A DNA stretch of 64,000 nucleotides from Callorhinchus milii. Taxonomy: Eukaryota. Position numbers and translations under genes: made by a program. Location of the stretch: the NCBI RefSeq assembly GCF_018977255.1, contig NW_024704742.1, positions 75,828,001 through 75,892,000 on the forward strand, in the 5' to 3' direction. The notes beneath the pieces are model-generated. The model did not search any database. It saw nothing but the letters and a program-made list of their open reading frames with translations, and was not told the DNA's origin. How positions within the stretch are numbered: position 1 is the stretch's first letter; the number at the start of each line of letters is the position of its first letter. Positions 6,010 through 60,317 of the stretch are shown in pieces.

Positions 6010-6335
6010 TGATGATAATAATAATAATCCTTGCGTTTGATATAGCGCTGTTCACGTCGGGAGGACGTCCCAAAGCGCTTCACAGAACAAACTGTAAAGT
6101 GAATTGACTGTGTATTTGTGGGCGAACGCGGCAGCCAATTGTGCACAGCAATGTCCCACAAACAGTCGTAGATTGAAAATGACCAATTTAATTATTGGTT
6201 TGGGTTTTGGAGGGATTATTATTAGGCTCTGTGTGGAGTAAGGAAACTTGCCCAAGGTTTCGCCCTGTGCCTGGAATTGAACTCAGGTCTCTCACTTGCA
6301 AAGCGAGTGCTCTAACCACTGAGCTACAGGACTCC
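6010..6335 (-). mobile_element. Young tRNA-derived SINE (Deu-domain-like core, L2-type tail), short form
   Basis: Head ggagtcctgtagctcagtggttagagc (A box), gagttcaattcc (B box); core tgtgggacattgctgtgcacaattggctgccgcgtt; (tta)n tail. Confidence 0.92.
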
Positions 6336-7095: not shown

Positions 7096-7210
7096 CTGAA
7101 GTGAAAACTAAACTGAGTGTCAAAACTAATACGATTTTGACATTTAAATCTGCAGCAACGTGACTCTTCTTCAAAAGCAAACACACTCCCTGGGCAACTG
7201 CTGTAAGTGC
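7096..7210 (-). other. Candidate non-coding first exon of ABCG2-like gene
   Basis: Strong donor ttcag|gtgagt at 7095 in unique sequence; the first coding exon has an acceptor upstream of its ATG, so a 5' UTR exon is expected. 5' boundary is a guess. Confidence 0.4.
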
Positions 7211-7224
7211 CCAGCAGCCTGGCC

Positions 7225-7630
7225 TCTGCCACTCACACACACACTGCCCTGAGTCACTGCCACTCACACCAACCTACACACTCACACACACTGCCCTGAG
7301 CCACTGCCACTCACACCAACCTACACACTCACACACACACTGCCCTGAGCCACTGCCACTCACACCAACCTACACACTCACACACACTGCCCTGAGCCAC
7401 TGCCACTCACACCAACCTACACACTCACACACACACTGCCCTGAGCCACTGCCACTCACACCAACCTACACACTCACACACACACTGCCCTGAGCCACTG
7501 CCACTCACAACCTACACACTCACACACACACTGCCCTGAGCCACTGCCAACACTCACTCACTCACTCACTCACTCTGCCCTGAACCTCAGCCACTGCCAA
7601 CACTCACACTCACTCACACACACACTGAGG
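7225..7630. repeat. Minisatellite, ~7-8 units of ~46-49 bp
   Basis: Unit cactgccctgagccactgccactcacaccaacctacacact(ca)n. Confidence 0.95.
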
Positions 7631-7639
7631 CCTCAGCTC

Positions 7640-9258
7640 ACTGCACTGCTCACTACCCCCCTCCTACTGTACCTCCCCCCCTCCCTCCTACTGCACCTCC
7701 TCCCCTCCCTCCTACTGCACCTCCCCCCCACCTCCTGCTGCACCGCCCCCCACTGCACCTCCCCCCCCCACTGTACCTCCCCCCTCCTACTGCACCTCCC
7801 CCCCCACTGTACCTCCCCCCACTGTACCTCCCCCCCTCCTACTGCACCTCCCCCCCCACTGTACCCCCCCCACCTCCTGCTGCACCTCCCCCCCCCCTCC
7901 TGCTGCACCTCCCCCCCCACTGTACCTCCCCCCACTGTACCTCCCCCCTCCTACTGCACCTCCCCCCCCACTGTACCCCCCCCACCTCCTGCTGCACCTC
8001 CCCCCCCCCTCCTGCTGCACCTCCCCCCCCCACTGCACCTCCCCCCCCCCACTGTACCTCCCCCCCCCACTGTACCTCCCCCCACTGTACCTCCCCCTCC
8101 TACTGCACCTCCCCCCCCACTGTACCCCCCACCTCCTGCTGCACCTCCCCCCCCCTCCTGCTGCACCTCCCCCCCACTGTACCTCCCCCCTCCTACTGCA
8201 CCTCCCCCCCCACTGTACCCCCCCCCACTGTACCTCCCCCCCTCCTACTGCACCTCCCCCCCCCACTGTACCTCCCCCCACCTCCTGCTGCACCTCCCCC
8301 CCACCTCCTGCTGCACCGCCCCCCCCCACTGTACCTCCCCCCCTCCTACTGCACCTCCCCTCCCTCCTACTGCACCTCCCCCCCCCCACTGTACCTCCCC
8401 CTCCTACTGCACCGCCCCCCTCCTACTGCACCTCCCCCCCCACTGCACCTCCCCCCCCCCACTGTACCTCCTCCCCTCCTACTGCACCTCCCCTCCCTCC
8501 TACTGCACCTCCCCCCCCCACTGTACCTCCCCCCTCCTACTGCACCGCCCCCCTCCTACTGCACCTCCCCCCCCCACTGCACCTCCCCCCCCCACTGTAC
8601 CTCCTCCCCTCCTACTGCACCTCCCCCCCTCCTACTGCACCTCCCCCCCCCCACTGTACCTCCTCCCCTCCTACTGCACCCCCCCCACTGTACCTCCCCC
8701 CTCCTACTGCACCTCCCCCCCCCACTGCACCTCCCCCCCCACTGCACCTCCCCCCACCCACTGCACCTCCCCCCACCTCCTACTGCACCTCCCCCCCCCA
8801 CTGCACCTCCCCCCCACCTCCTACTGCACCTCCCCCCCCACTGCACCTCCCCCCACCCACTGCACCTCCCCCCCACCTCCTACTGCACCTCCCCCCCCAC
8901 TGCACCTCCCCCCCCCACTGTACCTCCTCCCCTCCTACTGCACCTCCCTCCCTCCTACTGCACCTCCCCCCCCCACTGTACCTCCCCCCCTCCTACTGCA
9001 CCGCCCCCCCCTCCTACTGCACCTCCCCCCCCACTGCACCTCCCCCCCCCCACTGTACCTCCTCCCCTCCTACTGCACCTCCCCCCCTCCTACTGCACCT
9101 CCCCCCCCCACTGTACCTCCTCCCCTCCTACTGCACCCCCCCCCACTGTACCTCCCCCCTCCTACTGCACCTCCCCCCCCCACTGCACCTCCCCCCCCCA
9201 CTGCACCTCCCCCACCCACTGCACCTCCCCCCACCTCCTACTGCACCTCCCCCCCTCC
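7640..9258. repeat. C-rich minisatellite, ~15-19 bp units
   Basis: Alternating ctcct(a/g)ctgcacctCn and cactg(t/c)acctCn. Confidence 0.97.
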
Positions 9259-25243: not shown

Positions 25244-25443
25244 CCAGGTCTTTTCTCCTTTTCAGTTCATTAATGTTCATGTTGATTTCTTTTACTGCTG
25301 CCAGTGCTTCCTTAACAGGTTTATAATCTGCGTGCAGATCCGGGGTGGAATTCAGCAGCTCACTCAGAAGCAGCGGGTATTTCATGACTCGCTGCACTGG
25401 TTTAATGAGGATTGAGCCCATGTCTAATAAAGTGCTGCTCCTT
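25244..25443 (-). CDS. ARHGEF38: ARHGEF38 exon 6 (end of DH domain)
   Basis: [26 protein letters not shown]...[10 protein letters not shown]; 200 nt. Confidence 0.95.
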
Positions 25444-35151: not shown

Positions 35152-35472
35152 AATAATAATAATAATAATAATAATCCTTGCATTTGATATAGCGCTTTTC
35201 ACGTCGGGAGGACGTCCCAAAGCGCTTCACAGAACACACTGTAAAGTGAATTGACTGTATATTTGTGGGCGAACGCGGCAGCCAATTGCGCACAGCAATG
35301 TCCCACAAACAGTCGTGGATTGAAAATTACCAATTTATTATTGTTTTTGGTTTTGGAGGGATTATTATTAGGCGTGTGGAGTAAGGAAACTTGCCCAAGG
35401 TTTCGCCTTGCCTGGAATTGAACTCAGGTCTCTAGCTTGCAAAGCGAGTGCTCAACCACTGAGCTACAAGAC
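35152..35472 (-). mobile_element. Young tRNA-SINE, short form, nested in older SINE (34885-35625)
   Basis: Near-identical to 6010-6335. Confidence 0.92.
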
Positions 35473-35747
35473 CTTGATATAACATCTCATCCAAAACCGC
35501 ACCTCTGACAATGCACGCCCCCAGCACCTCATTGCAGTTTAGACGATGTGAGTTCAAGTCTCGATATAGGGCTTGAACCCAAAACCTTCTGACTCAGAGG
35601 TGAGAGAACTACCAATTGAGCCACTCTTGACAGGTGTATTAAATAGCAAAATTGTAACCAAAAATAATGCACTGTTAAATCTGTCTGACAAACATCAAAA
35701 TGATCCTTGATCTTGAAAGGTTGAAAAATAATTATGTTGAACATTAC

Positions 35748-35932
35748 CTGTTTCTTTCTCAAGGGCTGTACAACTTCGGAGATGCACAGCTCTAAATCAC
35801 TCAAATAATCTCTTTCAGTCTGCACAAGCTCTTTGATGATCTTTGACCTCCTGGCCATCTTCCTTTGTCTCTGCTCTTCAAGATCCAGGGCTGAGGTCAC
35901 AGTCTCGGGAATTGCATGTGGCGTCATCTTTT
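35748..35932 (-). CDS. ARHGEF38: ARHGEF38 exon 2 (start of DH domain)
   Basis: EKMTP...KIIKELVQTERDYLSDLELCISEVVQPLRKKQ; ctccag| and cag|gtaatg. Confidence 0.95.
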
Positions 35933-35957
35933 CTGGAGGGGGCAAGGGGAGAAAAGT

Positions 35958-36470
35958 AAACTCTGCAGCTCGTGTACTCTCACGCTCCGTGACTCCATCA
36001 CTCCCACCCTCGCCCGACTCCACTGGCTCCCCATCCCCCAGAGGATTGAATTCAAGATCCTCGCCCTCACCTTTAAGGCTATCCATGGCCTTGCCCCGTC
36101 CCACCGCTCTGACCTGCTGACTCCCTACCAACCTGCCTGCTCCCTCCGTTCAGCGGGCTCTGGTCTGCTCCATGTCTCCCGTCCAACCCATCTTACCATC
36201 GGTGGCCAGGCTTTCAGCCTCTCTGCCCCACACTCTGGAAGTCCATTCCACGGTCCCTTTGCCTCGCTTACTCCCTTGCCTCCTTCAAGGCTGGTCTCAA
36301 GACCCTTCTCTTCGACTGTGCCTTTGGTCGCCCTCCCACCTCTCTGCCTTCCCTCACCCCTACACCATCCCTCCCCCCTACTCGGACCCTGACACCTGAC
36401 TGTTCAGCGCTTTGGGACATCCTCCCGACGTGAAAGGCGCTCTATAAATGTAATTTTATGTTGTTGTTGT
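35958..36470 (+). mobile_element. L2 LINE 3' fragment
   Basis: DSITPTLARLHWLPIPQRIEFKIL...GGQAFSLSAP; (ttg)n tail. Confidence 0.92.
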
Positions 36471-37049
36471 GTGAGCTCTGGCCACAATTGGGGAGGATAA
36501 GTTTGCAGGGCTATGGGGAGAGCGGGACTGAATTGAATAGCTCTTTTCAAAGAGCCGGCACAGACATGATGGGCCGAATGGCCTCCTTCTGTGCTGTATA
36601 ATTCTATGATGATATGAATGATCAAACACCCTCTTCTTCACATGGTAACCACTGGCTTTGAACAGGACCATAGACTGTCCTTTGAGAATACCTCAATTGG
36701 GATGGCTTTCATTACAATAGGTCACTAATATCCGTGATGGCCCTAGTCAGGTCAGTGATTAACGTATCCTTGTCAGACAGCATTAGTTGTAAAAGCTGCT
36801 TATTGTTCTCAATTGCATGCAGTTTAAAACCTGAGACATTTTCATTTTAATTTGTGTCAGGGTGTGACCTGCCAAGCTGGAAACCATTTACAATTATCTG
36901 TCTTGCTTTGTAATGCGAGAAACATATAGAGGGCCAACCATCAGTGTCACCGGTATTACCATCCCCTCAACTGGTTACAAACTGGTTCTGAAGGCTCCCA
37001 GTACAGACAACTGTGATTCTACAAAGTGCAACAGGATTCACAGATCTTC

Positions 37050-37226
37050 GTTGTCTTCTTTGTCTTCCTTGTCCTGCCTCTCCCTCTCAATTTGTCCTTA
37101 AAAATCTCTCCCTCCCAACATGCCCCAGTTCTGACGAAGGGTCATGGACCTGAAACGTTGACTCACTTTCCTTTCTCCATAGATTCTGCCTGACCTGCTG
37201 AGTTTTCCCAGCTCTCTCTGTTTTTG
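37050..37226 (+). mobile_element. Penelope-like pseudo-LTR / retrozyme-like insert with hammerhead motif
   Basis: ctgacgaagggtcatggacctgaaacgtt...cctgacctgctgagt; flanked by direct repeat ttcacagatcttc (37037-37049, 37227-37239). Confidence 0.65.
37127..37163 (+). ncRNA. Minimal type-I hammerhead ribozyme-like motif
   Basis: Stem I AGUU/GACU, core CUGACGA, extra A, stem II GGGUC-AUG-GACCU, GAAA, palindromic AACGUU stem III. Confidence 0.5.
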
Positions 37227-37803
37227 TTCACAGATCTTCAGTTCGATCCATGGGGGATGGGAAGCGAGGATGGGGGTTGTGATAGGCTTGCAGAGCCTGG
37301 CCCAGGCTGCAAAGTTCTGTATAGTCTGCAGAAAGTCATAATAAAATCTCTCTCTCTGAGATAGCCACAGCATTAAGACTGTAATTCTGATAATGTTGCA
37401 GTTACTGTAGTAAGGCCAAACAATGACAACATAATATTCCTTTGATATCACCTTATATTATTGAGGCATCTCAAAGTGCTTCATAGGATGTTACTGTGAA
37501 GTGTAGGATCCACAGACCCTCCTCCTCGCCCCCACCCGTGCCTCCTTTAAGACCCTCCTCTTCGACTGTGCCTTCGGTCACTCTTCCCACACTCCACCCC
37601 TCCTGATCCCAACCACCAGCTCGGTTGTGGATCCCTGACTGTCCAGCACCTTGGGGACATCCTCCTCACATGAAAGGCTCTGTACAAATGTAATTTGTTG
37701 TTGTTGTATTGGTCGGTGAATTTTTGCTCACTAAGTATACAGCCAATTCACTTTATAGTACATTCTGTGAAGCGCTTTGAGATGTCTCCAAGACGTGATA
37801 AGT

Positions 37804-38170
37804 GGAGTCTTGTAGCTCAGTGGTTAGAGCACTAGCCTCACAAGCAAGATACCTGGGTTCGATTCCCGGCAGGACGAAACATTGGGCAAGTTTCCTTACT
37901 CACCACACCTCTGTTTACCTAACAGTAAGTAGGAACCCGGTGGTTAGTCGATTAGTGGATCGCTTTTCCGGAGGTAATAATTCCTTAAAAAATAAATTGG
38001 TCACTCAATCCACGACTATTTGTGGGACACTGCTGTGTGCAACTGGCTGCCGTGTTTCGCCCACAAAATATACAATCAATTCACTTTACAGTATATTCGG
38101 TAAAGTGCTTTGAGCCATCTCGAAGACGTGATAAGGCACTATATCAAATGCAAGGATTATTATATTATAT
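37804..38170 (+). mobile_element. tRNA-SINE, long form (also ~40905-41252 -, 62595-63009 -, partial 5400-5650 - and 58930-59145 -)
   Basis: Same head and core plus ~65-nt segment ctctgtttacctaacagtaagtaggaacccgg...gatcgcttttccgg. Confidence 0.88.
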
Positions 38171-39978
38171 AAAATCCAAGGATTTTTATTATTATTAGCA
38201 TGATTTGTAGATATTGAGGCTGAAATTCCACTTGGGGCTAGATTTTTAGGGGTATTGTAGAACATGCAAATTTTGGAAAATCCTTCAAATTAATCTTAAT
38301 TTTGAAGCCAATTTTGTTATTCAATTTTCTTCAAAATTAAGATTGAGTAAGAACTCATTAAAGTTCTTGAAGGGGTTCATGGGATATGGGAATAAGGTAG
38401 GGAAGGGGTATTGAATAGACCAAACTTGCTCTGAGAGCCATTGCAGACTTGATGGGCTGAATGAGCTCCTTCTGCACTGTAAATTTCTATGATTCTACGA
38501 ACCTTTCACAGCATATACACACTGACATTGTTAGAAAAAGGGAGTCAGTTGTTCTCCCCCACTGTTCTCCAAACTTGGTAGAATTTATTCTATCACCAAA
38601 ATAATTGAAGGAGGAAAGTCACTCAGTTGCTTGAGAGAGATTACACTCAGTGGGGGCGCAATGACAAGGCACTTTACTCTGTGACAATGATATACAGCAG
38701 GGATTCCATGTAACCATGACAGCACATGCAAGAAGGGTAGTGGGGGGATTTAATTCAACTACAGACTAATCCGATAGGATGAAAGCCTCGCATCTCTCCT
38801 GCCTGTTTTGTGGAAGATTTAATGTTGGAACTCGGTTTCTAGTGGGTGCGAAAGCAGTGCAGAACCACCCATAATTGATAAACTCATCATAGAGGCCACA
38901 AGAGAGAACAGGGAATACAGACGTGTGCAGTGGTGGGCTCTGTGCAGGCTGGTTGCTCAGTGCTTTAATTGGTGGAGAAATTCTCACTGGGACAACACTC
39001 AATAAAACACGCAGAGACTTTACAATAAGTCATTTTGGAGTGAAATTTGCATTTTGTGTGTGAATGAGCCAAAGGAGAACCTCACTCACCCCACCTCCTC
39101 CCTCCAACATTGTTCTTAATGATTAACTGGGTCTACAGTGTTGGACTTGCAGATTGAAGCCACTGACTGCAGGTTAACAAGACACCATCTTTTTGTGTTC
39201 GTGTTTTAGCAAAAACTTGTTATTTGTTTAACCGTGTGTCAGATTGGCTCAAGTGGTATCACTCTTGTCACTGAGTCAGAAGGTTGTGGGTTGTGGTACC
39301 CCCAACTTGGGTCCGAAACCCTGATTGTCCAGCACCTTGGGACGTTCCACCGATGTAAAAGGCACTATACAAATGTAATTTTTGTTGTTGCTTTTGTTGT
39401 TCAAGCCCCACATCATGATTTCGAATCATTTTGTCTAGGCTGACATTCTAATGCAGTGCTCGGGGTATACTGCATTTTTGGAGGAGTGTCTTCAGAGGAG
39501 ACATTAACCCGAAGTCTCGTCTGTCTGTTCAGGTGGATGTTAAAGATCCCATGGCACTATTCAAAAAGAGGCATTTCTCCTGGTGTCCTGGCCAACAAAT
39601 CCCCCAAATAAAATTGGTCACTCACTTCATGGCTGTTTATGGGACATTGCTGAGTGCAAATTGGCTAACACGTTCGCCATGCTTTTGGACATGTGTGAAT
39701 ACATTCGGTATTCTGAAGGAACTGGGTGTAGCTAAAATAGGTCCAGGGTCTACAACAGGAGAACTGTGTAGGCAAGAGATTTAACAGGACCAAACCACAC
39801 TGCTGTTAAGTGCTCTGAGCGATGCTTGTGTGCAGGGTGCTAAATAAATGCAATTTGTGTTGTTTTTATGAATCAGGCAGTGTCAATGAGTGGAGCTGAG
39901 GGGTACAAATCTACCAGGTCTGATCCCATAGTCATAGGCTTCGAGCATGTGGGGACATCTGCAATACCATCCTAATTG

Positions 39979-40285
39979 GAGTCCTGTAGCTTCTGTAGCT
40001 GAGTGGTTAGAGCTTTCGCCTCACAACAAGACCTGGGTTTGATTCCCAGCAGGGTGAAATCTTGGGCAAGTTTCCTTACTCCACACGCCTGATAATAATC
40101 CCTCAAGAAAAAGAACAATAATAATTTGGTCACTTCAATCCACGACTGTTTGTGGGACACTGCTGTATGTAATGGCTGCTGCGTTTCGCCCATAAATATA
40201 CAGTCAATTCACTTTACAGTATATTCTGTGAAGCGCTTTGAGAAGATGTGAAAAGCGCTATATCAAATGCAAGGATTATTATTAA
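39979..40285 (+). mobile_element. tRNA-SINE, short form
   Basis: Same head, core and tail. Confidence 0.88.
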
Positions 40286-42103
40286 TTCCACATGCTACTG
40301 ACGAAAGTAGGTGGAAGCAGAAGAGTTACTATACTAGTTGTAGTGGGCTGATTCGGGGCTTGTAATCAAGGATCCTGTAATGGCTAGATTTATTCAACTG
40401 CTATGGATTAGTGGATGGTTAGAATCCCCCCAACCCACCACCCCCTGCCAATTCATCAGGGTTCAGGATCCCTGTAACCTGTGCTCACTCCGATGCAGAG
40501 CGGAGTGTTGCACAGTAATTCTCCAACAAACTACTGCAAACGTCAGTGCAAGCAGCTTGTCTATAACACAGCAGAAAAACACCCAAGCACTGACACTTTA
40601 AATAGACTGAAATACGCCACTGGGGAAGAGCAGCAAATGGAAAAGCAGCTGCTGACAACTGATCCATTAACAAGCTGAATCCACCTTGTGCAAGTCACAT
40701 CGACTCATGTATTACAAGGTGAAAAATAAGGAGTTCAAAATATTAGTGCTTACACCCACTTCTCCGTTGTATTAAACACCCTGAACAAGAGTACCTAATT
40801 TTAAAAGCAAACCCGAAACTGCCCCATGGTCTGCAGTAAATTGACAGTGGGTAGAGTCTGCGATTCTATGGTGTGTAGGGTGGTGATTTTATTTAGAGAT
40901 GATAATAATATTAATCTTTGCATTTGATATAGTGCATTAACACGTCTTCGAGAGGTCTCAAAGCGCTTCATAGAATATGCTGTACAGTGAATTGACTGTA
41001 TATTTTCTGGGCGAAATTTGGTGGCCAATTGCGCAAACAGTCATAGATTGAAATGACCAATTTATTGTTATTTTTTCTTGAAGGAATTATTACCCCCGGA
41101 AAAGCGATCCGCCAATTGACTAACAACCAGGTTCCTACTTACTGCTCGGTAAACAGAGGCGTTTGGAGTAAGGAAACTTACCTAACGTTTCGCCCTGCTG
41201 GGTATTGAACCCAGGTCTTTCGCTTGTGAGGCGAGTGCTCTAACCACTGAGACACGATCTACAGTACTCTGAAATGATGGGCAGAACAGCTGGACAAGCC
41301 AAACATTGCATGGGCTAATCATTGCAGTAACCCTGGAGGTGTTTGTGCCACTAAAATTGTAACTGGAGGTGTTTGTGCTACTGAGATGATATTATTCCCC
41401 AAGATCTCTAAGCAGGCTGGACATAGACATCACTAGACTGTGACACTGTGCTCTCTTGGAATTATTTGTTGTTACTCCTTCATTTATCTTGGTCCCAGTC
41501 ACAGTCTTCTCAAATTGGCCTTCCACCCAGTCTTCTCCCCAACTTTGGCCCATTCCATCACCTTCCAAGGCCATTATTATGACTCATCTTCAGCCAACTG
41601 GCATAATAACAATCTTGCCCACAAATAATTCACTTTATGGCTGTTTGTAGGACAGTGGTGCACAGATAGTATTGTGAAGACTGCTCCGGCTCCATAGCCT
41701 GGGAAAAGGCTGAGAGCTCACGGAAATGAGTCGCAGTCACTGTTAGGGAGGTATTTTGGGACATATGTGCATGCGATTGCCAGGAAGGTGGAAGGCAAAC
41801 TAGATGGACCTTGTTTTTTTTTGTCTAGCATTTCTTACGTTCTTGCTAACCACTTAATTTGCAGCCTTCCTCAATTGAAGAGTGTTGCATGGTCTGGCCA
41901 CATTAATTGAATCCAAAACATCTGCCCAAATACGCACACATACACACACAGTAATTTAGTCTGCTATTTCTGTGCAATGTATCAGGCTGTATTTCCACAG
42001 CACCCGCAGCCCAGAACTAGAACAATTCATTATTCCCCAATAATACAGACCCCAGATCACATTTAATGCCTGTTTACCATTCACATGCAGATATAGCTCA
42101 ATA

Positions 42104-42418
42104 TGTAGCTCAGTGGTTAGAGCACGTGCCTTGCAAGCGAGACACCTGGGTTCAATTCCAGGCAGGGCGAAGCCTTGGGCAAGTTTCCTTACTCCACACT
42201 CCTAATAATAATCCCTCCAAAAACAAAAACAATAATAAATTGGTCATTTCAATCCACGAATGTTTGTGGGACACTTCTGTGTGCAATTGGCTACCGCGTT
42301 TTGCCCACAAATATACGGTCAATTCATTTTACAGTCTATTCTGTGAAGCGCTTTGAGACATCGAGAAGACGTGAAAAGCGCTAAATCAAATGCAAGGATT
42401 ATTATTATTATTATTATA
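42104..42418 (+). mobile_element. tRNA-SINE, short form
   Basis: Same head, core and tail. Confidence 0.9.
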
Positions 42419-43382
42419 ACACAGTAAAAACATAGAGAAAACAAATGCCTAGAGAAAAAGTAATCATCCATTGTTACGTGGAAACTCGCACACGCCCACT
42501 GTTCCATTACTGTAATAGAGAATCAAACCTATGGTGATCATAATGAAAGGTAGTGTTATGCAACATTGGACAATCTTAGGATGCTTCCCTCCAAGCAGAG
42601 AGTGCGCATTCCATTCCAGAGATACAAATGTAGGTGACATACATGTGTAGAATTCTCCATCTGGTTTGAATATTTGCAAGCATGGTGATGAGTTTCTGCG
42701 TGTGTCAGACACTTAGCTGATCAAAAAACAATATTCTGATGAATTAAAATTCCCAGTAAAGTGATTCTCCTATAATACATCTTTGAAATCAATTATGATT
42801 TGCCTTTTCCCTCCCACCTGCCCTCCTCCCCCACCCTTCATCTGTGGTCATTAGCAGACTTGTGTTACTGGTCTCAACCCACAGTCCATCCTGTGGTTGG
42901 TTCCGACAGAGTTGGGATACAGTGCCGTGACCTGTGCTTTTCCTGCTCTCCAGAAAAAGAGGCAATGATGTGAGGGGCAAAGATAGCCAACCTCTGTGCA
43001 GTAGCTGAACACTTTCAATTAACAACAGGGCCTAGCTCCATAGACGATCAACAACAGCAACTTGCATTTATACAACACCCTTCACATGGGGAAGCGTCTC
43101 GGAGTGAAACAGAGCGAGATCAGTCCTGTAAGCTCCACCCTCTTCTTGAGGTATTTGTTTACCCAGAGGGTAATTGACTGGAACAGGTTGACAGAAAGGA
43201 TGGTTGATACCAACACACTGGATTCATTTAAAAAGCAGCTTGAAGCTGTAATGTAAGAATGGTAGGGTGGGTAGAAAAATGAGATCAAATGGGCCTAAGG
43301 GCCTTCTCCATCTAATCTGACTGTGATCTTGCAATTTTGTGGGAGCTGCATCTCTCTTATCTGGCATCAGGACTCTGCCATC

Positions 43383-43703
43383 AATAATAATAATAATCCT
43401 TGCATTTGATATAGCGCTTTTCACGTTGGGAGAATGTCCCAAAGCGCTTCACAGAACACACTGTAAAGTGAATTAACTGTATATTTGTGGGCGAACGCGG
43501 CAGCCAATTGCGCACAGCAATGTCCCACAAACAGTCGTAGATTGAAAATGACCAATTTATTATTGTTTTTGGTTTTGGAGGGATTATTATTAATAGGCGT
43601 GTGGAGTCAGGACACTTGCCCAAGGTTTCGCCCTGTGCCTGGAACTGAACCCAGGTCTCTGACTTGCAAAGCGAGTGCTCTAACCACTGAGCTACAGGAC
43701 TCC
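43383..43703 (-). mobile_element. Young tRNA-SINE, short form
   Basis: Near-identical to 6010-6335. Confidence 0.92.
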
Positions 43704-44374
43704 ACAATGCAGGTCCTATTACTCAGCAGGTTGGAGCATTGAGACCAACAGTACAGGGAGTCATGGTTAGAACCCAGAGAAGATGGTAAATAACTAATAC
43801 TGCCTTTGGTACTGTATTTCAAGATCAGCCACCGTTTCCTTCTGAAGAGTCATCTAACTAGTTATACAAGAACATTCTAAATGGATAATATTTGTATTGG
43901 AATGTTGTTCCATTGAAGCTTTCTCTTCCTCATGTCTACTCTCATTGTACTTAACCATAACTGAGACACACTGAATAATGGTGCATTGGCCATGACTGCC
44001 AGGAAAATGAACATCACATCACAGGAAGAAGCCATTCGGTCCATCATGCCTGTGTTGGCTCTCTGAAAGAGACATCCGTTTAGTCCCATTCACCTATCCC
44101 TCCTATGCCCAATACAGGAATCTCAAGTGCTTTAGGATAGGAAGGTCCACTGGTGGCGCTCAGGCCTGTTTTATCTGCCCCCTCCCCCCCCCCCCACTTC
44201 CCTCCATTTTATCTGGCCCACACGCTCCCTCTATAACCATTATGTTTCTGGAAGTGAAACAAAAAAATATTGCTTATGCAGCCTGCAGACGTTTCTCAAA
44301 TACGGCATCCAGCCCTCAGAAAAGGTTGGGCCACCCTGCTTGAGGACATTATCCCAACATGAAAGTGCTGTATA

Positions 44375-45330
44375 CAACAACAATAACTTGGATTTATATA
44401 GTGCCCTCCACGCCGGACGCCGTCTCAAAGCACTTTACATTAATAGATCCTGGGATCAAGCCAGGGGGAGGGGGAGGAAGGTGACTAAAGGCGCGGTGGA
44501 AAAGAAAGGTCTTCAGCAGAGACCTGAAATTGGGAAGTGAGGGAGTGAGGTGGAGGGAGTGAGGAAGGCAGTTCCAGAGCCTCGGGGCATAGTGGCTGAA
44601 GGCACGGCCGCCGAGGGTGGAGCGGAGGACTTGGGGGACAAGGAGGAGACCAGACCCAGAGGAACGAAGGCAACAGGTACTGTTTTGAGGAGAGAGGAGG
44701 TCAGAGAGGTAGGGGGGTGCAGAGGAGTGGAGGGATTTGAATACAAGGGTCACGATCTTGAAGTCGATCCTCTCTGGGACAGGCAGCCAGTGCAGTCTGG
44801 TAAGGACTGGGGTGACGGGGAGTGGAGTTTTGTCCGGGTGAGAATGCGGGCGGCAGAGTTTTGAATGATTTGGATTTTATGCATGGTAGTGGATGGGAGC
44901 CCAGTGAGGAGAGCGTTAGAGTAGTCCAGCCGAGAGGTGACAAAGGCATGGACCAGGGTTTCAGCGGCATTTGGGGAGAGGTATTGGCGGAGACGGCCGA
45001 TGGGTCAGAGGTGGAAGAAAGTAGTGCTGGTGAGGGACCGGATGTGGGGGAGGAAGGATAATTGGCGGTCGAACCTGACCCTAGGTTGCGTACGGGTTCG
45101 GAGAGTTTTAGGAGGAGGTCGGGTAGGTGGAGGAGTGAGATTTTAGACGTTGACAAGAGCCAAAGAGTATGGCTTTCGTCTTGTCAACGTTCAGCTGAAG
45201 GAAATTTGCACTCATCCAGCCCCTGAGATTTCACAGGCAGGCTGACAGAACATCAGGGGGCTGGGCGTCGCAGAGAGAGGTGGAAAAATAGAGTTGGGTG
45301 TCGTCTGCATCCATGTGGCAGTGTACCCCA
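44375..45330 (-). mobile_element. L2 LINE 3' fragment, different subfamily
   Basis: [12 protein letters not shown] segment, LGGRAFSHYAPRLWN, FRSLLKTFLF; (ttg)n tail. Confidence 0.9.
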
Positions 45331-48164
45331 CACTTCTATATAAATAGAAACTGTATTGTACCGGGCTATATTTTAATATAAAAGTCCTGCACAACACAAA
45401 TTTGTCAGTATGTTATCATACTTGTTGCCACGTCAGAATAAATACTTCTTGTTTACAATGAACAGTGAAGCCTGATCGCTTCTGTCATGCCAAGCTGACT
45501 TCCAGTTTGTAAAGGTGTTCCAGGACCTATCAGCATTGATCATGCACCTTTGTTGCACCCTCGAGGAATGTCACCATATAATGTCAAAATAAGCCAGCAT
45601 TATGCAAATATCCTCCCAGGGCTCATTTTGTTTCATAGTCCTGAGAAGCTTCGTCACATTAACAAATACATGCAAACTAAATTCACACAAAACATTGTAG
45701 AGCCTCCCACTTGTAGTTATCAATGATCTACAATATGTCACTGAAGGAAAATTCTAGTTGTAATAATTTACCTGCTATATGGGATTTATTGGATTTGCTG
45801 TATCATAGAATCAGACGAATGTTAAGGCACAGAAACAAGCCATTTAGCCCATCAATTCTGCACTGTTTATCTTCCCATAGGAAATATGTTCCTAGCTATG
45901 AGTGGAATGAAATCTGCTGTGCCATTTTCTGCCAGTTATAAGGTCATTGCCAAGGAAAAAAAAGTTTCTAACAGTGGTAAAAGTAGTGGAAATGTAAGTT
46001 ATTGCTGACACAATGATTGTACCCAGTCTCTCATTTATTCCACTGTGCTGATTGTAATAACATAGTTAGCACACTATGGGCATGTTCAGAACATTACTAA
46101 CCTGGGTCAGTTTATTATTAAAAAGAATGTCAAGCAATTGGAATTTAAGAAACATTAAAATGGGCAAGCCATGAGGTTCCCTATCTGTAAAGTGCTCTGA
46201 GACGTTATCCACTACGTAAAGGCTGCTATATAAATACAAGTTGTTGTTACGGAACAGTCTGTAGTTGGACACAAACCCTATCAAATAACACTGATTCCAT
46301 GTGTTTGCATTATAATAACGATGCCTTTTTTTTTCTCAGTTCATTACTAACAAAGCAGGAAGTGATAAAGAGTATCTTGGTTGGTAACAAGCAGATGGCA
46401 ACCAGCAAAAAGGTGCAGCTGGTTACCACCTGTGGCTGTACAAAGCTCGACTCGTACAATGTACAGACAAGAATCAGATATGGTACCACTCACTGGACAC
46501 AGATACTGCATAACAATGGGTGAATACTATAATGTGTTTTTACAGATTCTTAACGGTTAAGGAATGTCACAATGTTTTCACCCCAAAGTCTTCTATGTGA
46601 ACATTCAACAATTTGCATTTATGAAAGCGCCTTTCACATATAGTAACGTCTCAAAGTGCAGTACAGAGATGGAGTAGAAATTCGAGCAAGCTGGGAAATA
46701 GAGGGTAAGTGGGAGGGAATTCATCTAAGGTGTGGTGGAAGAAGTAGGTTTTTAGAAGGGTTTGGAAAACAGGAGGTGGGGGAAGGGGGAAGAGGGAGAG
46801 AGATTGATGGATTTGGAGGAAAGAGCTGTAGCGTATGGGGGTAAAGTGGCTGAAAACTCAGCAGTCAATGATTGGAGTGAGGGACATACAGCAGAGTGAG
46901 TAGGGGGTTGACAGAGTAGGCTGGAGGAAATTTCACAGAGTGGGTGGGACAGGGAGTGGAATGCTTTGAAAGGCAGAATGAGAATCCTGAATTACAGAAA
47001 TACCAACACTTGCTTTTAGTAATACCAGCACTTCAGCTTTTAACATCCTCCAAAAATGTATTGAATGCTCTTGGAATAATATAACAGATGGAGTTAGGGC
47101 AAAAGACTGACATTTCTAGTGGACAGTTTTCTAACACTGACTGCTTGTAAAATGTCTTGGTGACTGACAGTAAGTTGTTTCAAGAGACAGAAGGATTGAC
47201 CATTGTGACAGCCCACAATTCACCAGAAGTCACTGTAAAAGGCTCAATAAAAGACCACATTATATTTTGAAAATAACTGATAATAAAAATTATGATCATT
47301 ACATTTGATATAGCACCTTCCACGTCAGAAGGATGTCCCAAAGCACTTCACAGGATATACTGTACAGTGCAGTTACTGTGTATTTTGTGTGGGAATGCAG
47401 CTGCCCAATTATTCACAGCAATGTCCCACAAACAGCCATGGGGTAGTTGACTAATTTTGAATACTCCTCCTGCTTCCCTCTTCGACTGCAGAGAAAAAAA
47501 TAATAATCCTTGCATTTGATTCGCCATTGAGATATCTCAAAGTGCCTGTTAAGTGTAGTGACTGTGTATTTATAGGCAAATGCGAAAGCAAATTGAAATG
47601 ATTTCAGCCATGAAATGATTGGTCAAGCTTATTTAGGGGATTGTTGACCAGGACACTGGGAAGAAACTCTCTTTTCTTTTGAATAGAGCCATGGGATCTG
47701 CAACATCCACCTGAACCGACAGATGGGAACTAGGTTTAATGTCTTATCTGCAGATGATCTGAGACAATCTCACAGTAGTAGAGTATTTGCTTTTATGGTC
47801 TGATGATAGCTATAAATGACTCACACTTTGCTCTTGAAGTCTACAAGCACTTCTGCATTTTACTGCTGTATTTAATCCCTTGTATCCATTATGCTCTTGC
47901 TTAACAAAGCACGGCATTGTGGAAAATTCTTTAATGTAGCCTTAATTCAGAAGCTGGTTTCTTTTTAAGAACTGTAGAAAACTGAATTCCAAATTAAACC
48001 TGAATTGAAGAATTTTCCACAATGCCACATTTTAAGATGAAAAAACCTTACAGACTGAGACTGGGTGGAATTTCGGGCCTACTGCAGGAAAAAGTATGTC
48101 GGATTCATTACCCCATATTCTTTGGTGCTATCACAAGGAATGCGCTTTCACAAGCAGTACAAAA

Positions 48165-48320
48165 ATATAAATACAAAAATTATAATTTCTATTATATTTA
48201 TACTCATAATGCTTATATTTTATATCATATATAATTTATATATTATATGTAATATATTTATATAATATAAATTATATTTAGCAATATAAATTGTATTTAT
48301 AGAATACTATATTTTATTAC
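48165..48320. repeat. AT-rich low-complexity tract
   Basis: Almost only A/T with degenerate (ta)n. Confidence 0.8.
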
Positions 48321-51106
48321 TTCACGGCTGTTTGTGGGACACTGCTGTGCACAATTAACTGCCACGTTTCTCCTACAAAACAGTCAATCCACTTTACAAT
48401 ATATTCTGTGAAGCGCTTTGAGATGTCTCAATGATGTGATAAGGCACTTTATCAATTGCAAGGATTATTATTATTGTTAGTTCTTCCTATTATCACTGGC
48501 ATAAGATTACAATTCAGTCAACAGATACCCACAGCACTGCTTGCCAAAGCCATCGATGGCCCTCCAACACCCATATATTCCCTGCATGGGGCTATATCGA
48601 AGCAGATTCTGTGGAGTGGAATTCACTGATATATCACCATAGAACAGCCAGAATTTGGCAAATTCTTAAATGCATTCTTCACTTTTTCGTTTTTCTGTAA
48701 GTTCTTTAAGAACAGCAGAAAAAACTGTTTAAATTTTCGACATCCTGAAATACTGCATAAAATTTACACCCAGGTAGCATTTCTCCAGTAATTAGTTTAA
48801 AAAAACCCACAAGGAAACTGTCTTGATTTAATGATATTTCTAACTGAGCACAAACAAGAATGGAATTGGCGACCTTCTTCTTTGTGTGACTGAGTTCCAC
48901 ACCAGGCACCAAAACCTTTGTTTTTTTTACTCAACAGAAGACTCCTTAAAATGAACTATTTCACTGCTAAGGAATAGAATGCTCTTGTATTTTGGGCACC
49001 TTTGTGTTCCAGATCAGGAATAACATAGGCTGAATGTAACGTTCCCTTTGCTCTGCTCAACATTGTGACTCAGCCCCAACACCAAGAGAGCAAACTCTAA
49101 CTTTGTAAGTGTCACCACTTCCCACACATGCTTTCCTCGTGATCTCTCAGTGAGTCTTTGTGTTTGGTGCCAAATTGGTGCGAGTTTGTGTGCTATGGGT
49201 CCACGCCCAATAAGAACTGGGTGGTGACTGTCCACAATCACGTCATGTCGGACACTTTACAGACAACAGACAGAGGAGACTCTCAGTCCAATCGATTTGA
49301 ACGCGGGTTTCAGATACAAAATAATATTACGCCACTGAACCGTGACACCCGAGCCACTTGAAGGTGAATTCATGTCAGGTAAAACTGGTTAAAGGATTTG
49401 TATTTTGACAAGTTACGAGGAGGCACTGTCCAATTTTGTAGCCATTCAAAGCTTCCACGAAATCTGTTGCATATAAATCATACCCTGTAGCAGGTTTCTA
49501 AGAGCATTTGCGCAATTGGGACCAATTTGTTTACCCATTAAATACAGTCATTCCACTTTACAGTATATCCTGTGAAATGCTTTGGGACATCTTTCTGATG
49601 TGAAAGACACTACCTTTATAACAAATGCGAGGGTAATTGTTATTCGATACACTGGATGTCATGGGAAGTGCATTCTGTGTTCACCTGCAGGTGCAGCAGT
49701 GATATCAATGTAACAAGTAGAGGGAACTGGAAGGGAAGGGATCACCACTTAATAAAACAGTGTCTATACACCAGTGCACACAGGTGGAAGAGTGAGGAGT
49801 GTCCCTGGCTCTATCCATCCCTGCCTTGCAGTGTATAAGATGGGCATGACAACCCAGCTGCATGAATTCAGGTTATAAATATAGAACATCGTGCATCGCT
49901 CCAAGACCAACTGACTCATGCTGCGAGCACAGAATTTCTGTGTCCGAATGCACTCCAATGAAATAGAGAGGATAGTTACAGAGATGGAATTTGTTTGTGA
50001 TAGACTAGTAAGTTGCTCCAATAAATTAGCAGGGCTAATTTCTATATCTACGCCAGACTTTCACTTTGTACAGGAATTATTTTTTGTTGAATGAATATTT
50101 ATGCCATAAATCAAGAAATATTCAAATCAAGAAAAAGCTGAAAACCCACTACCCAATCGAACACGAACTTACCTAAATTAGTGCGAATGTTTGGGTGGTT
50201 GGGGGTGGGGGGGGCAGGGGGAAGGGTCCTGATTGCCATGGGGCCACTTCTGGTTCACTGACCTAATATCATAATATTGATTGAAATTTTTACCCCTTTA
50301 CCTGCCTGTAAAAGTAAAGAGACTGGTATACGATATTGCTAAGCAATCCAAATAAATAGAGATCTACTGTTTTAAACACAAAAATGGGAATCTTATTAAG
50401 GGAACCTGTCAGAGTTCCCATGAGTCTGTTTTAATTTGGAAACTTCTTCTTAAAAACTGCAGTAAGTCAGCTTCAAAATGAAGAAATGTCCACACGCTGT
50501 TCAATCTTATAGTAGTATTACAGGCTAAGACTAGAGGAAATTTTGGACCTCTGATTGATGCTAACACATGCAAACACAGAATAAAACGCAGAAAAGGGAA
50601 GCGATGTCTCTGGGATGGTTTAAAGGAAGCAAACACTGGCTGATTTTTTCCAAGAACATTGACGTCAGACGCAATGCCCTCAATATTGCCCAGCTCAGCT
50701 CATTTGCCTCACTAGGGATTAAATGTGCGTTTCTGGTCAGTATATACCAAATCACACCTAGTAAAATGTTTACCCACTGAGGCATCGGATGAGCCAAATT
50801 GGAAAGAGGGAGCTGGAGAAAAGCACACACAATCCACTGAAGACGAGATTTTGAAAATACTCATGGACCAAGCTAACATCACTCCTTTTGGTTTGGGAGG
50901 GATCAAGTAAGTTTTCATAACAATCATACTACACTGGGGAAAAAACTCAGAAAAATGGATCTAATCAATAATAATCCTTGCATTTGATATATAGTAGTAC
51001 CTTATCACACTACTGAAATGTCTTAAAGTAGTTTGTAGATTTACTGTAGAGGGTTGTGTAATTGTACTTTGCAAGCAAAGACATAAGACAATTTGTGTAC
51101 ATCAAT

Positions 51107-51497
51107 GATCCTCATCCTCACCTACAAGGCCATTCACGGCCTTGCTCCCTCCTACCTCTCCGACCTACTATCACCCTACCTACCTGTACCCTCCGTTCCT
51201 CTGGCTCCGGTCTGCTCCACATTCCCCGCCCCAACCGCCCTACCATCGATGGCCGGGCCTTCAGCCTCTCAGCTCCTAGGCTCTGGAACTCTATCCCCCA
51301 GTGCCTTCGCCGCCTCCTCCCTTTCCTCCTTCAAGGCCGGTCTCAAGACCTTTCTCTTTGACCGTGCCTTCAGCTCCCCTCTTGACTCTCTAGCCCCTCC
51401 TCGCTCCCTTCCCTCACCCTGACCCAACTGTACAGTCCCTTGGGACGTCCTCCCCACGTGAAAGGCGCTCTATAAATGGAATCTTGTTGTTGTTGTT
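51107..51497 (+). mobile_element. Young L2 3' fragment, near-identical to the 3' end of 29413-31552
   Basis: ILILTYKAIHGLAPSYLS; same 3' UTR and tail aaatggaatcttgttgttg. Confidence 0.93.
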
Positions 51498-52965
51498 CAG
51501 CTAGGACTGTCGTGCAGTTAAGAGTTTGACTTTGTGATCAGGACGTGTTCCAAAACTCACTGATGAGCCAGACATGCTGGTCCCCTTCCAACAAAATGTT
51601 TTAGATTAGTGTGTGCCTATCCGGCTTGGGGACCCATGACTCAATACAATCAGTTCAACCCAAGCAGATCCGACTAACCAAGGAGGATATTTAGATCTTG
51701 TAATGTATTTTAAATTAACATGGAATGGGCATAGGAGACTCACTAGAATTCAAATCCTTAATCCCTGGTCCTATATTTGCCAACAAAAAAACACTTTGGT
51801 ACACTGGACAATAATTACTGTGAGGAGCTTTGGGGGGGTTTGTGCATTTTGTGTGCAATTCACCATAAAAATGCAACTTCTTCCTCTTTTCTTTGGTGGA
51901 TCCAGTACTCAACCGGTTGAGATACCTGGGCCTGATTGCAGTGTTGAGGTTCAAGCTGTAATGTGGCTTCTTGGTAGAAATCTTTCAGAAGTCGTCACCT
52001 TGTGCTTCGTGACATCAACTATCTATAATAAGCAAATGTTATTCTCTGAATCCTGTTGTATTCACTGCACTATATCACCAGGGCAATCTGAATGTAAAGC
52101 CTTTTTTTCGGTAGGGCGGCTGATCTACCTCCCAGCTTTGTTTGGGTTTTAGGAAATGAATACAGCGATCACCTGTTTGCTTGCCCAGGTTCTGGGAACT
52201 GCTAACACATTACATCACTCACCTGCCTGCCGATCGCCGTGTTATACCTGAGACGTACCTGAGCCAGGAACAGGGCTCGTATTACACTCTGACTCATCAG
52301 GGAATTAGGTCATGTTTAACCCTCAAGGGCAATGTTCCACCTGTAACTGCACCGACACACACGCAGGAAGAATGCCACTGCGATGCAATAGAGTCTCTAT
52401 TTCACAGTGACCGCAAAACTGCCCTGAAAAAAGGGAAACGTTTTATTGCACAGACCTATCAACTTAAAAGTGCATTTAGAGGCTGACTGGGATGCAAGTG
52501 TATCTGTTGAGGTGTCTCTAGTCAGGCACATTGCATTCAGCTCCCTGCAGTGCATAATACCCTCACTGGGAGTTCGTTATCCAGTGAACTCCCACTCACT
52601 CAACCCCAACACTGCAAACCTCAATCCAGTTACTAAATCGCTACACGATCGGTTTGAGAGTTTTATTGAATGACTGTGGCAACAAGAGAGGAGATCCAAC
52701 CCAAACACCAGCCAAAGTTCCCCTGCAATGATCCCAACCCATAGAGAGCACATTGCAGACCGTTATACACGAGGCGATGGGTTTAGTTGGGGTGTGCACT
52801 TGCCACTCTTTCAAGACATCTTACAAAAAAAAACTATATTTTAATGTCGGCGTCAGGACTAACAGAGAACATGTTGGCATCGCTTTTTCAAAGTACCAAA
52901 CGGTGTTGAGTAGCGATCGCAGGTACCCGGGGAGTGCGCACTGAAGGAGAGCTGGGGGGTTGCTG

Positions 52966-53364
52966 GTGAGTGACTGAGTGAGTGAGTGACTGAGTGAGTG
53001 ACTGAGTGAGTGACTGAGTGACTGAGTGAGTGAGTGAGTGAGTGAGTGACTGAGTGAGTGACTGAGTGAGTGACTGACTGAGTGAGTGACTGAGTGAGTG
53101 ACTGAGTGAGTGAGTGAGTGTGTGACTGGGTGAGTGAGAGAGTGAGTGAGTGACTGGGTGAGTGAGTGAGTGAGAGAGTGAGTGAGTGTGTGACTGGGTG
53201 AGTGAGAGAGTGAGTGAGTGTGTGAATGAGTGAGTGACTGAGTGAGTGACTGAGAGAGTGAGAGAGTGAGTGACTGAGTGACTGACTGACTGACTGACTG
53301 AGTGAGTGAGTGAATGAGTGAGTGAGTGACTGACTGAGTGAGTGACTGAGTGAGTCAGTGAGTG
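52966..53364. repeat. Mosaic tetranucleotide microsatellite (GAGT/GACT)n
   Basis: Directly visible; begins ~22 nt into ARHGEF38 intron 1. Confidence 0.97.
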
Positions 53365-53386
53365 TTTGGCGGCGGTGTCTGTGTAC

Positions 53387-53603
53387 CTTTGAGTTTGCGG
53401 CTGTACTCCGTGCGGTCGGATTGGCTCCTCCGCAAGTTGCTGCTCTTCTCCTCCTCTGCGGCCGCCGAGCTCTCGGCGATGATGGTGTCTGTCCGCCGCC
53501 GCTCCAGGATGTACAGTCTGGGTCTGAAGAAGCTCAGGTTTTTCTTCTTGGAGCCCGAGCCCTCCTTGGCCGAGGGGGCAGCGCTGTCGCCGCTGGTGTC
53601 CAT
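53387..53603 (-). CDS. ARHGEF38: ARHGEF38 coding exon 1
   Basis: MDTSGDS...LRRSQSDRTEYSRKLK; gacATGG context; donor aag|gtacac; CpG-rich. Confidence 0.93.
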
Positions 53604-53734
53604 GTCCGGCTGCCCTGCTCCAGCCTCCCGCTGACCCTGCGGCTGCCCCGATACACCGCCCCGACACTGATGTTACTGAGTTATTACTGTGACTCCGCCC
53701 AACAGCCACACACCTACCTACCACCTACCTGACA

Positions 53735-55227
53735 CTCAGTCACACACACACTCACTCAGTCACTCACTCAGTCACTCACTTAACCTGTGCAACCTTACTG
53801 CATCGCAACACACACACTCACTTAACCTGTGCAACACTCCTGCATCACAACACACACACACACACTCAACCTGTGCAACACTCCTGCATCACAACACACA
53901 CACACTTAACCTGTGCAACCTTACTGCATCACAACACACACACACTCAACCTGTGCAACCTTACTGCATCACAACACACACACACACACTCAACCTGTGC
54001 AACCTTACTGCATCACAACACACACACACACACTCAACCTGTGCAACCTTACTGCATCACAACACACACACACACTCAACCTGTGCAACCTTACTGCATC
54101 ACAACACACACACACTCAACCTGTGCAACCTTACTGCATCACAACACACACACTCAACCTGTGCAACCTTACTGCATCACAACACACACACACACTTAAC
54201 CTGTGCAACACTCCTGCATCACAACACACACACACTCAACCTGTGCAACCTTACTGCATCACAACACACACACTTAACCTGTGCAACCTTACTGCATCAC
54301 AACACACATACACACACACTCAACCTGTGCAACCTTACTGCATCACAACACACACACACACTTAACCTGTGCAACCTTACTGCATCACAACACACACACA
54401 CACTTAACCTGTGCAACACTCCTGCATCACAACACACACACACACACACTCAACCTGTGCAACCTTACTGCATCACAACACACACACTTAACCTGTGCAA
54501 CCTTACTGCATCACAACACACACACACACTTAACCTGTGCAACCTTACTGCATCACAACACACACACACTCACTTAACCTGTGCAACCTTACTGGATCAC
54601 AACACACACACACACTTAACCTGTGCAACCTTACTGCATCACAACACACACACACACACACTCAACCTGTGCAACCTTACTGCATCACAACACACACACA
54701 CACACTTAACCTGTGCAACCTTACTGCATCACAACACACACACACACTTAACCTGTGCAACCTTACTGCATCACAACACACACACACACTTAACCTGTGC
54801 AACCTTACTGCATCACAACACACACACACTTAACCTGTGCAACCTTACTGCATCACACACACACTTAACCTGTGCAACCTTACTGCATCACAACACACAC
54901 ACTTAACCTGTGCAACCTTACTGCATCACAACACACACACTTAACCTGTGCAACCTTACTGGATCACAACACACACACTCACTTAACCTGTGCAACCTTA
55001 CTGGATCACAACACACACACACTCACTTAACCTGTGCAACCTTACTGCATCACAACACACACACACATTCACTTAACCTGTGTAACACTCCTGCATCACA
55101 ACACACACACATTCACTTAACCTGTGCAACCTTACTGCATCACAACACACACACATTCACTTAACCTGTGCAACACTCCTGCATCACAACACACACACAC
55201 ACACTGTGCAACCTTACTGCATCACAA
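53735..55227. repeat. Minisatellite, roughly 35 units of ~36-46 bp
   Basis: Unit ct(t/c)aacctgtgcaaccttactgcatcaca(ac)n. Confidence 0.97.
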
Positions 55228-59649: not shown

Positions 59650-60317
59650 GGAGTCCTGTAGCTCAGTGGTTAGAGCACTCGCTTTGCAAGTGGGACACCT
59701 GGGTTCAATTCCAGGCAGAGCGAAACCTTGGGCAAGTTTCCTTACTCCACACGCCTAATAATAATCCCTGCAAAAAACCAAAAACAATAATAAATTGGTC
59801 ATTTTCAATCTACGATTGTTTGTGGGACATTGCTGTGCGCAATTGGCTGCCGCGTTCGCCCACAAATATACAGTCAATTCACTTTACAGCATATTCTGTG
59901 AACCGCTTTGAGACGTCAAGAAGACGTGAAAAGCACTATATCAAATGAAAGGATTATTATTATTATGATGATGATGATGATTATGATTATCGAGTCCTGT
60001 AGCTCAGTGGTTAGAGCACTCGCTTTGCAAGCGAGAGACCTGAGTTCAATTCCAGGCACAGGGCAAAACCTTGGGCAAGTTTCCTTACTCCACACGCCTA
60101 ATAATAATCCCTCCAAAACAAAAAAAATACAATAATAAATTGGTCATTTTCAATCTACGACTGTTTGTGGGACATTGCTGTGCGCAATTGGCTGCCGCGT
60201 TCGCCCACAAATATACAGTCAATTCACTTTACAGTGTGTTCTGTGAAGCGCTTTGGGACGTCCTCCCGACATGAAAAGCGCTATATCAAATGCAAAGATT
60301 ATTATTATTATTATTAT
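59650..60317 (+). mobile_element. Two head-to-tail young tRNA-SINEs (59650-59975, 59992-60317)
   Basis: Two full copies, each with A/B boxes and (tta)n tail. Confidence 0.93.

Follow-up and report, generated by a model that had tools for sequence, protein, structure and literature searches.

The insert, its copies and its host intron

The feature analysed here is a short insert in a 64,000-nt window (the whole stretch of DNA under study), where it lies in the first coding intron of a RhoGEF gene, antisense to that gene and about 1.1 kb from the acceptor (Table 1). RhoGEF exon matches were found on the minus strand at 35652-35840 and 25269-25433 of the window, and the exon at 53603-53387 joins in frame, with GT/AG borders, to the exon at 35932-35748. 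A first-pass annotation had placed the insert in intron 1 and had cautioned that it runs antisense to the host gene, and both statements are borne out by the exon matches together with the in-frame join. The gene is presumably ARHGEF38-like, by resemblance, and the test itself covered the designation 'RhoGEF'.

Table 1. Features of the insert and its surroundings (positions in the window)
Feature	Position	Strand	Basis
Host intron, first coding intron of the RhoGEF gene	35933..53386	-	RhoGEF exon matches; GT/AG borders; in-frame join of flanking exons
Target-site duplication, left copy, 13 bp	37037..37049	+	Exact repeat; missing from the flanks of other copies
5'-truncated pLTR/3' UTR of a Neptune-type Penelope-like element	37050..37228	+	92-96% identity to 39 other scored places; other copies extend upstream into a GIY-YIG/RT frame
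Minimal type I hammerhead motif, predicted cut 37159/37160	37127..37163	+	Sequence; 2,120 genome matches vs 97 control
Stem I, 5' strand and 3' strand	37127-37130 and 37160-37163		
Core CUGACGA	37131-37137		
Unpaired A	37138		
Stem II, two strands	37139-37143/37147-37151		
GAAA	37152-37155		
C-G-U-U	37156-37159		
5'-end hotspot of other family copies; the window copy starts elsewhere	37127..37129	+	38/92 copies within 9 nt; 5' loose ends in 4/4 runs
Branch-point/pyrimidine/AG-like stretch, then the family ATG, altered here (37185)	37160..37186	+	Sequence resemblance only
Target-site duplication, right copy, 13 bp	37227..37239	+	Exact repeat; starts at the most frequent type of 3' end in the family

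When 37050-37226 was searched against the genome, 4,261 first-look candidates were obtained, 40 of which were scored, namely the window itself and 39 other places at 92-96% identity. A 19-mer from the 3' part of the insert was matched exactly at 5,614 places in the genome, against none for the control, and, given decay of about 5% per base, the true copy number is probably above 10,000. The earlier description of the insert as single copy thus holds within the window only.

The insert is enclosed by an exact 13-nt direct repeat, TTCACAGATCTTC, with 177 nt between the two copies, as had been reported, and the last 2 nt of the element piece (TT) are common to the right copy. This repeat had been read as a target-site duplication, a view that agrees with its position exactly at both ends of the homology and with its absence from the 60-nt flanks of other family copies (0/29). 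The same count speaks against a source in the family consensus, the other origin that had been considered for the 13-mer. Exact duplications of 12-15 nt of their own were present in 8 of the 29 other copies, compared with 21 of 812 swapped-flank controls, at or near the ends of homology or the ends of inverted partners, and 21 of the 29 lacked an exact duplication of at least 12 nt. An exact search was used for these counts, since a search allowing one mismatch proved too loose (13/30 control matches).

The left flank (36800-37049) has no second match in the genome, and as the flanks of the insert are unique or nearly so, there is no paralogous empty site. The comparison with an empty site that the first-pass annotation had envisaged found no such allele among the contigs of four public runs, in which no join skips the insert; a second sample of the same organism carries both insert junctions, and the contigs of one other organism cover only 36650-36943 of the locus. 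As no empty allele was seen, we infer the target-site duplication rather than prove it from a pre-insertion state.

Elsewhere in the window are long low-complexity tandem arrays (7200-9250 and 52950-55200), comprising a C-rich minisatellite and, where the first coding exon lies, repeats of GTGA and CA-rich type. Eight tRNA-like stretches (35403-35473, 37806-37877, 59652-59723, 59994-60065, 6268-6328, 41197-41255, 42104-42164 and 43636-43696), three of which were called by ARAGORN as Ala, Val and Ala, are probably the heads of tRNA-derived SINEs.

The hammerhead motif in the window copy and across the family

The insert contains the elements of a minimal type I hammerhead, with a stem I of 4 bp, a CUGACGA core followed by an unpaired A, a stem II of 5 bp whose first pair is G·U, then GAAA and C-G-U-U (Table 1). 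The fold that had been proposed stands as regards stem I, the core, stem II and GAAA, whereas its helix III, given as AACGUU, is reduced to ACGU. In standard numbering, helix III is the ACGU palindrome, the first A of the longer string is core A14 and its last U is U17, and the predicted cut therefore follows GUU. The pattern CTGANGA-N11-18-GAAACGTT has 2,120 exact matches in the genome, compared with 97 for the reversed control, and occurs once in the window, while the GUC version has 141 matches against 87. At 22-fold over control, the hammerhead motif is beyond chance. GUU is listed as cleavable, without a rate, in the accessible text of one study (PMC3138052). It would be a weaker cleavage triplet than GUC.

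Rfam covariance models, the means by which the first-pass annotation had hoped to recognise the motif, gave no match to a hammerhead family when 36500-37800 was scanned at E<=5, and none at gathering score over the whole 64-kb window. The 203-nt insert folds less stably than its shuffles (z=+2.0), and its global fold is without the hammerhead, the helices of which have a pairing probability of at most 0.01 when the insert is folded as a whole. Taken alone, the 37-mer does form the stems, but its best fold ties the core to CGUU (-8.9 vs -6.3 kcal/mol). The window copy departs from the majority of 29 copies at 7 positions in 177 nt (about 4% decay), two of which are CpG sites within stem II/loop II, and the change at 37151 gives G·U at 10.1-11.1 instead of G10.1-C11.1; all letters of the catalytic core are intact. 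These differences read as ordinary decay. As it stands alone, is partly decayed and runs antisense to the host pre-mRNA, the hammerhead of the window copy is most likely inert.

In an alignment of 29 copies, the rows of which were picked by the core pattern, 88% of the stem cells were paired and 12 cells were changed on both sides, against 0/500 shuffles, with 10 of the 12 representing one subfamily difference. Two subfamilies can be told apart, by G-C or A-U at the first pair of stem II and by U·G or U-A in stem I, and pair 10.1-11.1 is G-C in 10 rows, A-U in 12 and G·U in 5. Covariation would therefore lend the stems modest support, being essentially one event in rows picked by the core pattern.

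The motif resembles the minimal hammerheads of metazoan Penelope-like elements (PLEs), as described in the accessible part of the report on them, in being of type I, with a 4-bp helix I, an unpaired base before helix II, no helix III loop and a palindromic 15.2-16.2 (PMC4209133). An unpaired base between 9 and 10.1, G10.1-C11.1 and the palindromic 15.2-16.2 are listed there as traits of Penelope hammerheads, and hence the 'extra A before stem II', previously counted as a defect, is a conserved feature of the class. In contrast to those hammerheads, helix II here is 5 bp long, N17 is U family-wide, as reflected in the GUU and GUC pattern counts above, and one subfamily has A-U at 10.1-11.1, where the conserved pair is G-C. 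The same report records Penelope hammerheads in Xena, Poseidon and Neptune elements of fishes, cartilaginous fishes being unnamed among the hosts in its accessible text, and found that the minimal hammerhead in vitro showed no cleavage as a monomer and weak cleavage as dimers (PMC4209133). To judge by its repeats, the genome studied here may be that of a cartilaginous fish.

Two stretches resembling splice acceptors flank the hammerhead. One (37098-37128) terminates at stem I (AG/TT), and the other (37160-37186) follows the cut site, shows CTCAC/CTCAT/CTAAT variation at its branch-point-like position and terminates in AG/ATG.

Two further groups of hammerhead-like sequences were encountered in the genome. 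The first (L290-L298, on contigs C121, C152, C176, C210, C213, C241, C248 and C269) has GUC, a stem I of 3-4 bp, a longer stem II and an AT-rich 3' side, and is found on small unplaced contigs, where several copies lie within 5 kb. No tandem arrays were detected in it by TRF, one locus (L293) has weak RT homology, and it could be a second PLE family or derive from a contaminating organism. The other, older family (L141, L150, L152, L162, L164, L299 and L300), with a CTGAGGA core and GUC, is dispersed on large contigs and had no homology to the PLE proteins tried.

The parent element and the origin of the insert

In the 29 best copies the homology reaches from 1 to 763 nt further upstream, with ragged 5' ends, and the extensions enter a frame whose end is a GIY-YIG-like domain. 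Loci picked by this domain continue into a reverse transcriptase (RT) with a YIDD motif, and one of them (L036) has 470 stop-free codons across RT, linker and endonuclease. A Pfam search with this 470-aa frame gave no family at E<=0.1, and a second locus (L050) gave a sub-threshold RVT_1 match (23.1 bits vs a cut-off of 29.6). A search of longer proteins returned 28 homologues, the best with E 6e-119 at 48% identity, of which 22 contain PF00078 and 4 contain PF01541, the latter being GIY-YIG; the assignment of this domain is based on motifs and on the annotation of the homologues. Between RT and endonuclease the upstream frames have a linker that reads CX4CxxC, and the motif CX2-5CxxC is present there in 25 of 30 endonuclease-bearing loci (L031-L060). 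According to the accessible text of PMC8557442, the CX2-5CxxC linker is a mark of Neptune and Nematis, and the clade is thus named here from a motif that the two have in common and not from an RT tree.

At two loci (L101 and L103) the frame is preceded and followed by the insert sequence in the same orientation, as pLTR-ORF-pLTR, and the former locus has a 14-bp flanking duplication. Inverted 5' partners accompany 24 of 90 anchored loci, all pairs being joined 5'-to-5'; the window copy has no such partner and contains no part of the RT/GIY-YIG frame. All the long copies among the loci fetched were broken, and none was an intact autonomous copy. The view of the first-pass annotation that the insert is a solo Penelope end with a target-site duplication is in this way upheld by the linkage of its copies to an RT and GIY-YIG frame, by the pLTR-ORF-pLTR arrangement and by the copy-specific duplications, and the Penelope ORFs for which it had suggested a search are those into which the longer copies run. 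Two pairs of loci (L046/L054 and L191/L192) were near-identical across the whole 3 kb fetched, although on different contigs or 67 kb apart, and would represent segmental duplication or assembly redundancy.

The family shares with the endonuclease-bearing PLEs of the Neptune clade, as portrayed in the accessible text of PMC8557442, an RT and C-terminal GIY-YIG in a single frame, the CX2-5CxxC linker, a hammerhead in the pLTR, partial-tandem pLTRs, an inverted 5'-truncated partner and an optional tail of 30-40 nt. It differs in that the clade is here taken from the linker without a tree, the same linker being found in Nematis, and in the target, as the linker is tied there to microsatellite targeting, whereas the DNA around the window copy is unique and free of microsatellite, and the 13-bp duplication there is clean (PMC8557442).

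The 3' ends were compared in 92 distinct copies anchored on the 19-mer, these being the first 93 of the 5,614 places with one identical pair merged; all come from the first 13 Mb of contig C1, and one copy, compared with itself, was over-extended. The homology ends at a first U-rich site in 47 copies, about 35 nt further on in 39 and elsewhere in 6, and these two ends match the optional 30-40-nt tail described for PLEs (PMC11167929; accessible text of PMC8557442). In PAc, a Poseidon element of Anolis carolinensis, copies with and without the tail were traced to two internal, adjacent RT start sites (PMC11167929). The window copy is without the tail, which is about 37 nt long, and has its 3' end at the first U-rich site.

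We conclude, with a probability of roughly 0.93, that the insert is a dead-on-arrival, 5'-truncated piece of the 3' end (pseudo-LTR, pLTR) of a Penelope-like retrotransposon that bears an endonuclease and has the Neptune/Nematis type of linker. By the known mechanism, the GIY-YIG nuclease of the element would have nicked the intron with a stagger of 13 nt, and RT would have started copying at an internal position, the first of the two U-rich sites, perhaps aided by the 2-nt match, a start which would account for the missing tail. Synthesis would then have covered about 180 nt, through the hammerhead, before an early stop, and repair would have duplicated the target. As the window copy spans the cleavage site, its template would have been uncut RNA, the hammerhead having been carried along as a standard part of the pLTR.

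The first-pass annotation had also allowed for a non-LTR retrozyme monomer, that is, a non-autonomous unit of about 180 nt spreading via self-cleaved circular RNA. Metazoan non-LTR retrozymes are likewise short, non-coding, pLTR-related and equipped with a type I hammerhead; the insert falls within their range of 150-450 nt (accessible text of PMC7229834), and a preprint, in its accessible text, traces retrozymes back to pLTRs and reports them from one chondrichthyan (10.64898/2026.07.22.740005). However, they are defined by head-to-tail units, with mostly canonical hammerheads and circular RNAs, in the available portions of both sources (PMC7229834; 10.64898/2026.07.22.740005), whereas the family of the insert is dispersed and 5'-ragged, continues into an ORF, occurs in head-to-head pairs and has a minimal hammerhead. 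No head-to-tail arrays of the kind that had been suggested were found in the sampled loci, same-strand neighbours within 1 kb being present in 0/29, 1/30 and 1/90 loci, both cases partial pieces, and inverted neighbours in 5/29, 11/30 and 24/90. The cut site, moreover, does not set the ends of the insert, and the insert folds worse than its shuffles, while retrozyme circles are described, in the available part of PMC7229834, as highly self-paired. A retrozyme origin is thus very improbable, the sequence being the 3' UTR/pLTR of an RT and GIY-YIG element.

Co-option by the host, in which an antisense transcript would use the hammerhead or a splice-acceptor-like stretch to affect the RhoGEF gene, could draw on the intact core letters and on the presence of the insertion in a second sample. 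Against it stand the 7 differences from the family majority, which include the loss of G10.1-C11.1 to G·U and have the character of ordinary decay, the near-zero pairing probability of the helices in the whole insert, the core-blocking fold preferred by the isolated 37-mer and the lack of in vitro cleavage by single minimal hammerheads in the accessible account of PMC4209133, and we consider such a role highly unlikely. That the 13-mers arose by chance or from the element, and that the motif is a chance look-alike, would fit the Rfam result, the missing empty site and the resemblance of the family continuation to the start of the 13-mer over 2 nt, but is scarcely credible beside repeats placed exactly at both homology ends and missing from other copies, a motif well over control, and subfamilies that differ from G-C to A-U in stem II and from U·G to U-A in stem I.

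The 5' ends of family copies

The insert itself is minor, since both its element class and its ribozyme class are known and decayed copies like it number many thousands. The thousands of family copies, however, record the start and end points of cDNA, and PMC8557442, in its accessible text, describes the function of Penelope hammerheads as unclear. Among the 92 copies, 38 start within a stretch of 9 nt that covers stem I on its 5' strand and the beginning of the core, while 2 start within about 2 nt of the predicted cut, which is no excess. The 5'-stop rate per base is 0.111 in this hotspot, as against 0.016 and 0.019 in the sequence to its two sides and 0.006 where the cut is predicted. Contigs of all four public runs (labelled as three organisms) have their best-supported 5' loose ends with unrelated flanks at the positions equivalent to 37127-37129 (Table 1). 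With its start 81 nt before the core, the window copy falls outside the hotspot class. A tight boundary search found duplications in only 5 of the short anchored copies, and the hotspot class as a whole is thus without demonstrated duplications.

With 2 of 92 copies at the cut, hammerhead cleavage was rejected as the source of the 5' ends. The copies show a sharp limit along the hammerhead's 5' edge but none where it would be cut, a pattern that points to an RNA 5' end. Of three readings of the hotspot, we favour, if tentatively, a transcription start at CCAGTTC, which the initiator consensus allows us to call initiator-like. The promoter of the D. virilis element lies within the pLTR, according to the accessible text of PMC2377424. 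The second reading is a splice acceptor, and the D. virilis intron ends at helix I in the available part of PMC4209133, but apart from inverted element pieces no common upstream sequence was seen among the hotspot copies inspected, which tells against a spliced upstream exon as the cause. The third is a stop of RT at bound or folded RNA.

A fuller scheme, reminiscent of a strong stop, is possible, although we hold it at rather less than even odds. In this scheme transcription would start at CCAGTTC, which is also the 5' strand of stem I, placing the hammerhead at the extreme 5' end of the element RNA. RT would start internally, still within this 5' pLTR but about 100-140 nt further downstream, and run off the uncut RNA end. 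The resulting cDNAs of about 100-140 nt would be the most frequent inserted unit, at about 40% of the copies sampled. A ribozyme so placed would be unable to free the RNA from upstream sequence and would more likely act as a switch or have a structural role, being kept inactive in the monomer by core-CGUU pairing, which U17 would permit. The window copy would derive instead from a read-through 3' pLTR.

PAc likewise uses uncut RNA as its template and has no ends at the hammerhead cut, and hammerhead cleavage was dispensable in vitro (PMC11167929). It differs in belonging to the Penelope/Poseidon clade and in the start of its ORF inside the hammerhead, whereas the ORF homology here begins about 200 nt downstream (L101), and a hotspot of 5' ends at stem I is not among the features described for it in the accessible text (PMC11167929). 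Nor was a description of such a hotspot found in the open-access main text of the other papers searched. Of the 38 hotspot copies, 11 have GTT as their exact first letters, preceded by a base other than A, and this pattern may reflect a start site or a G derived from a cap.
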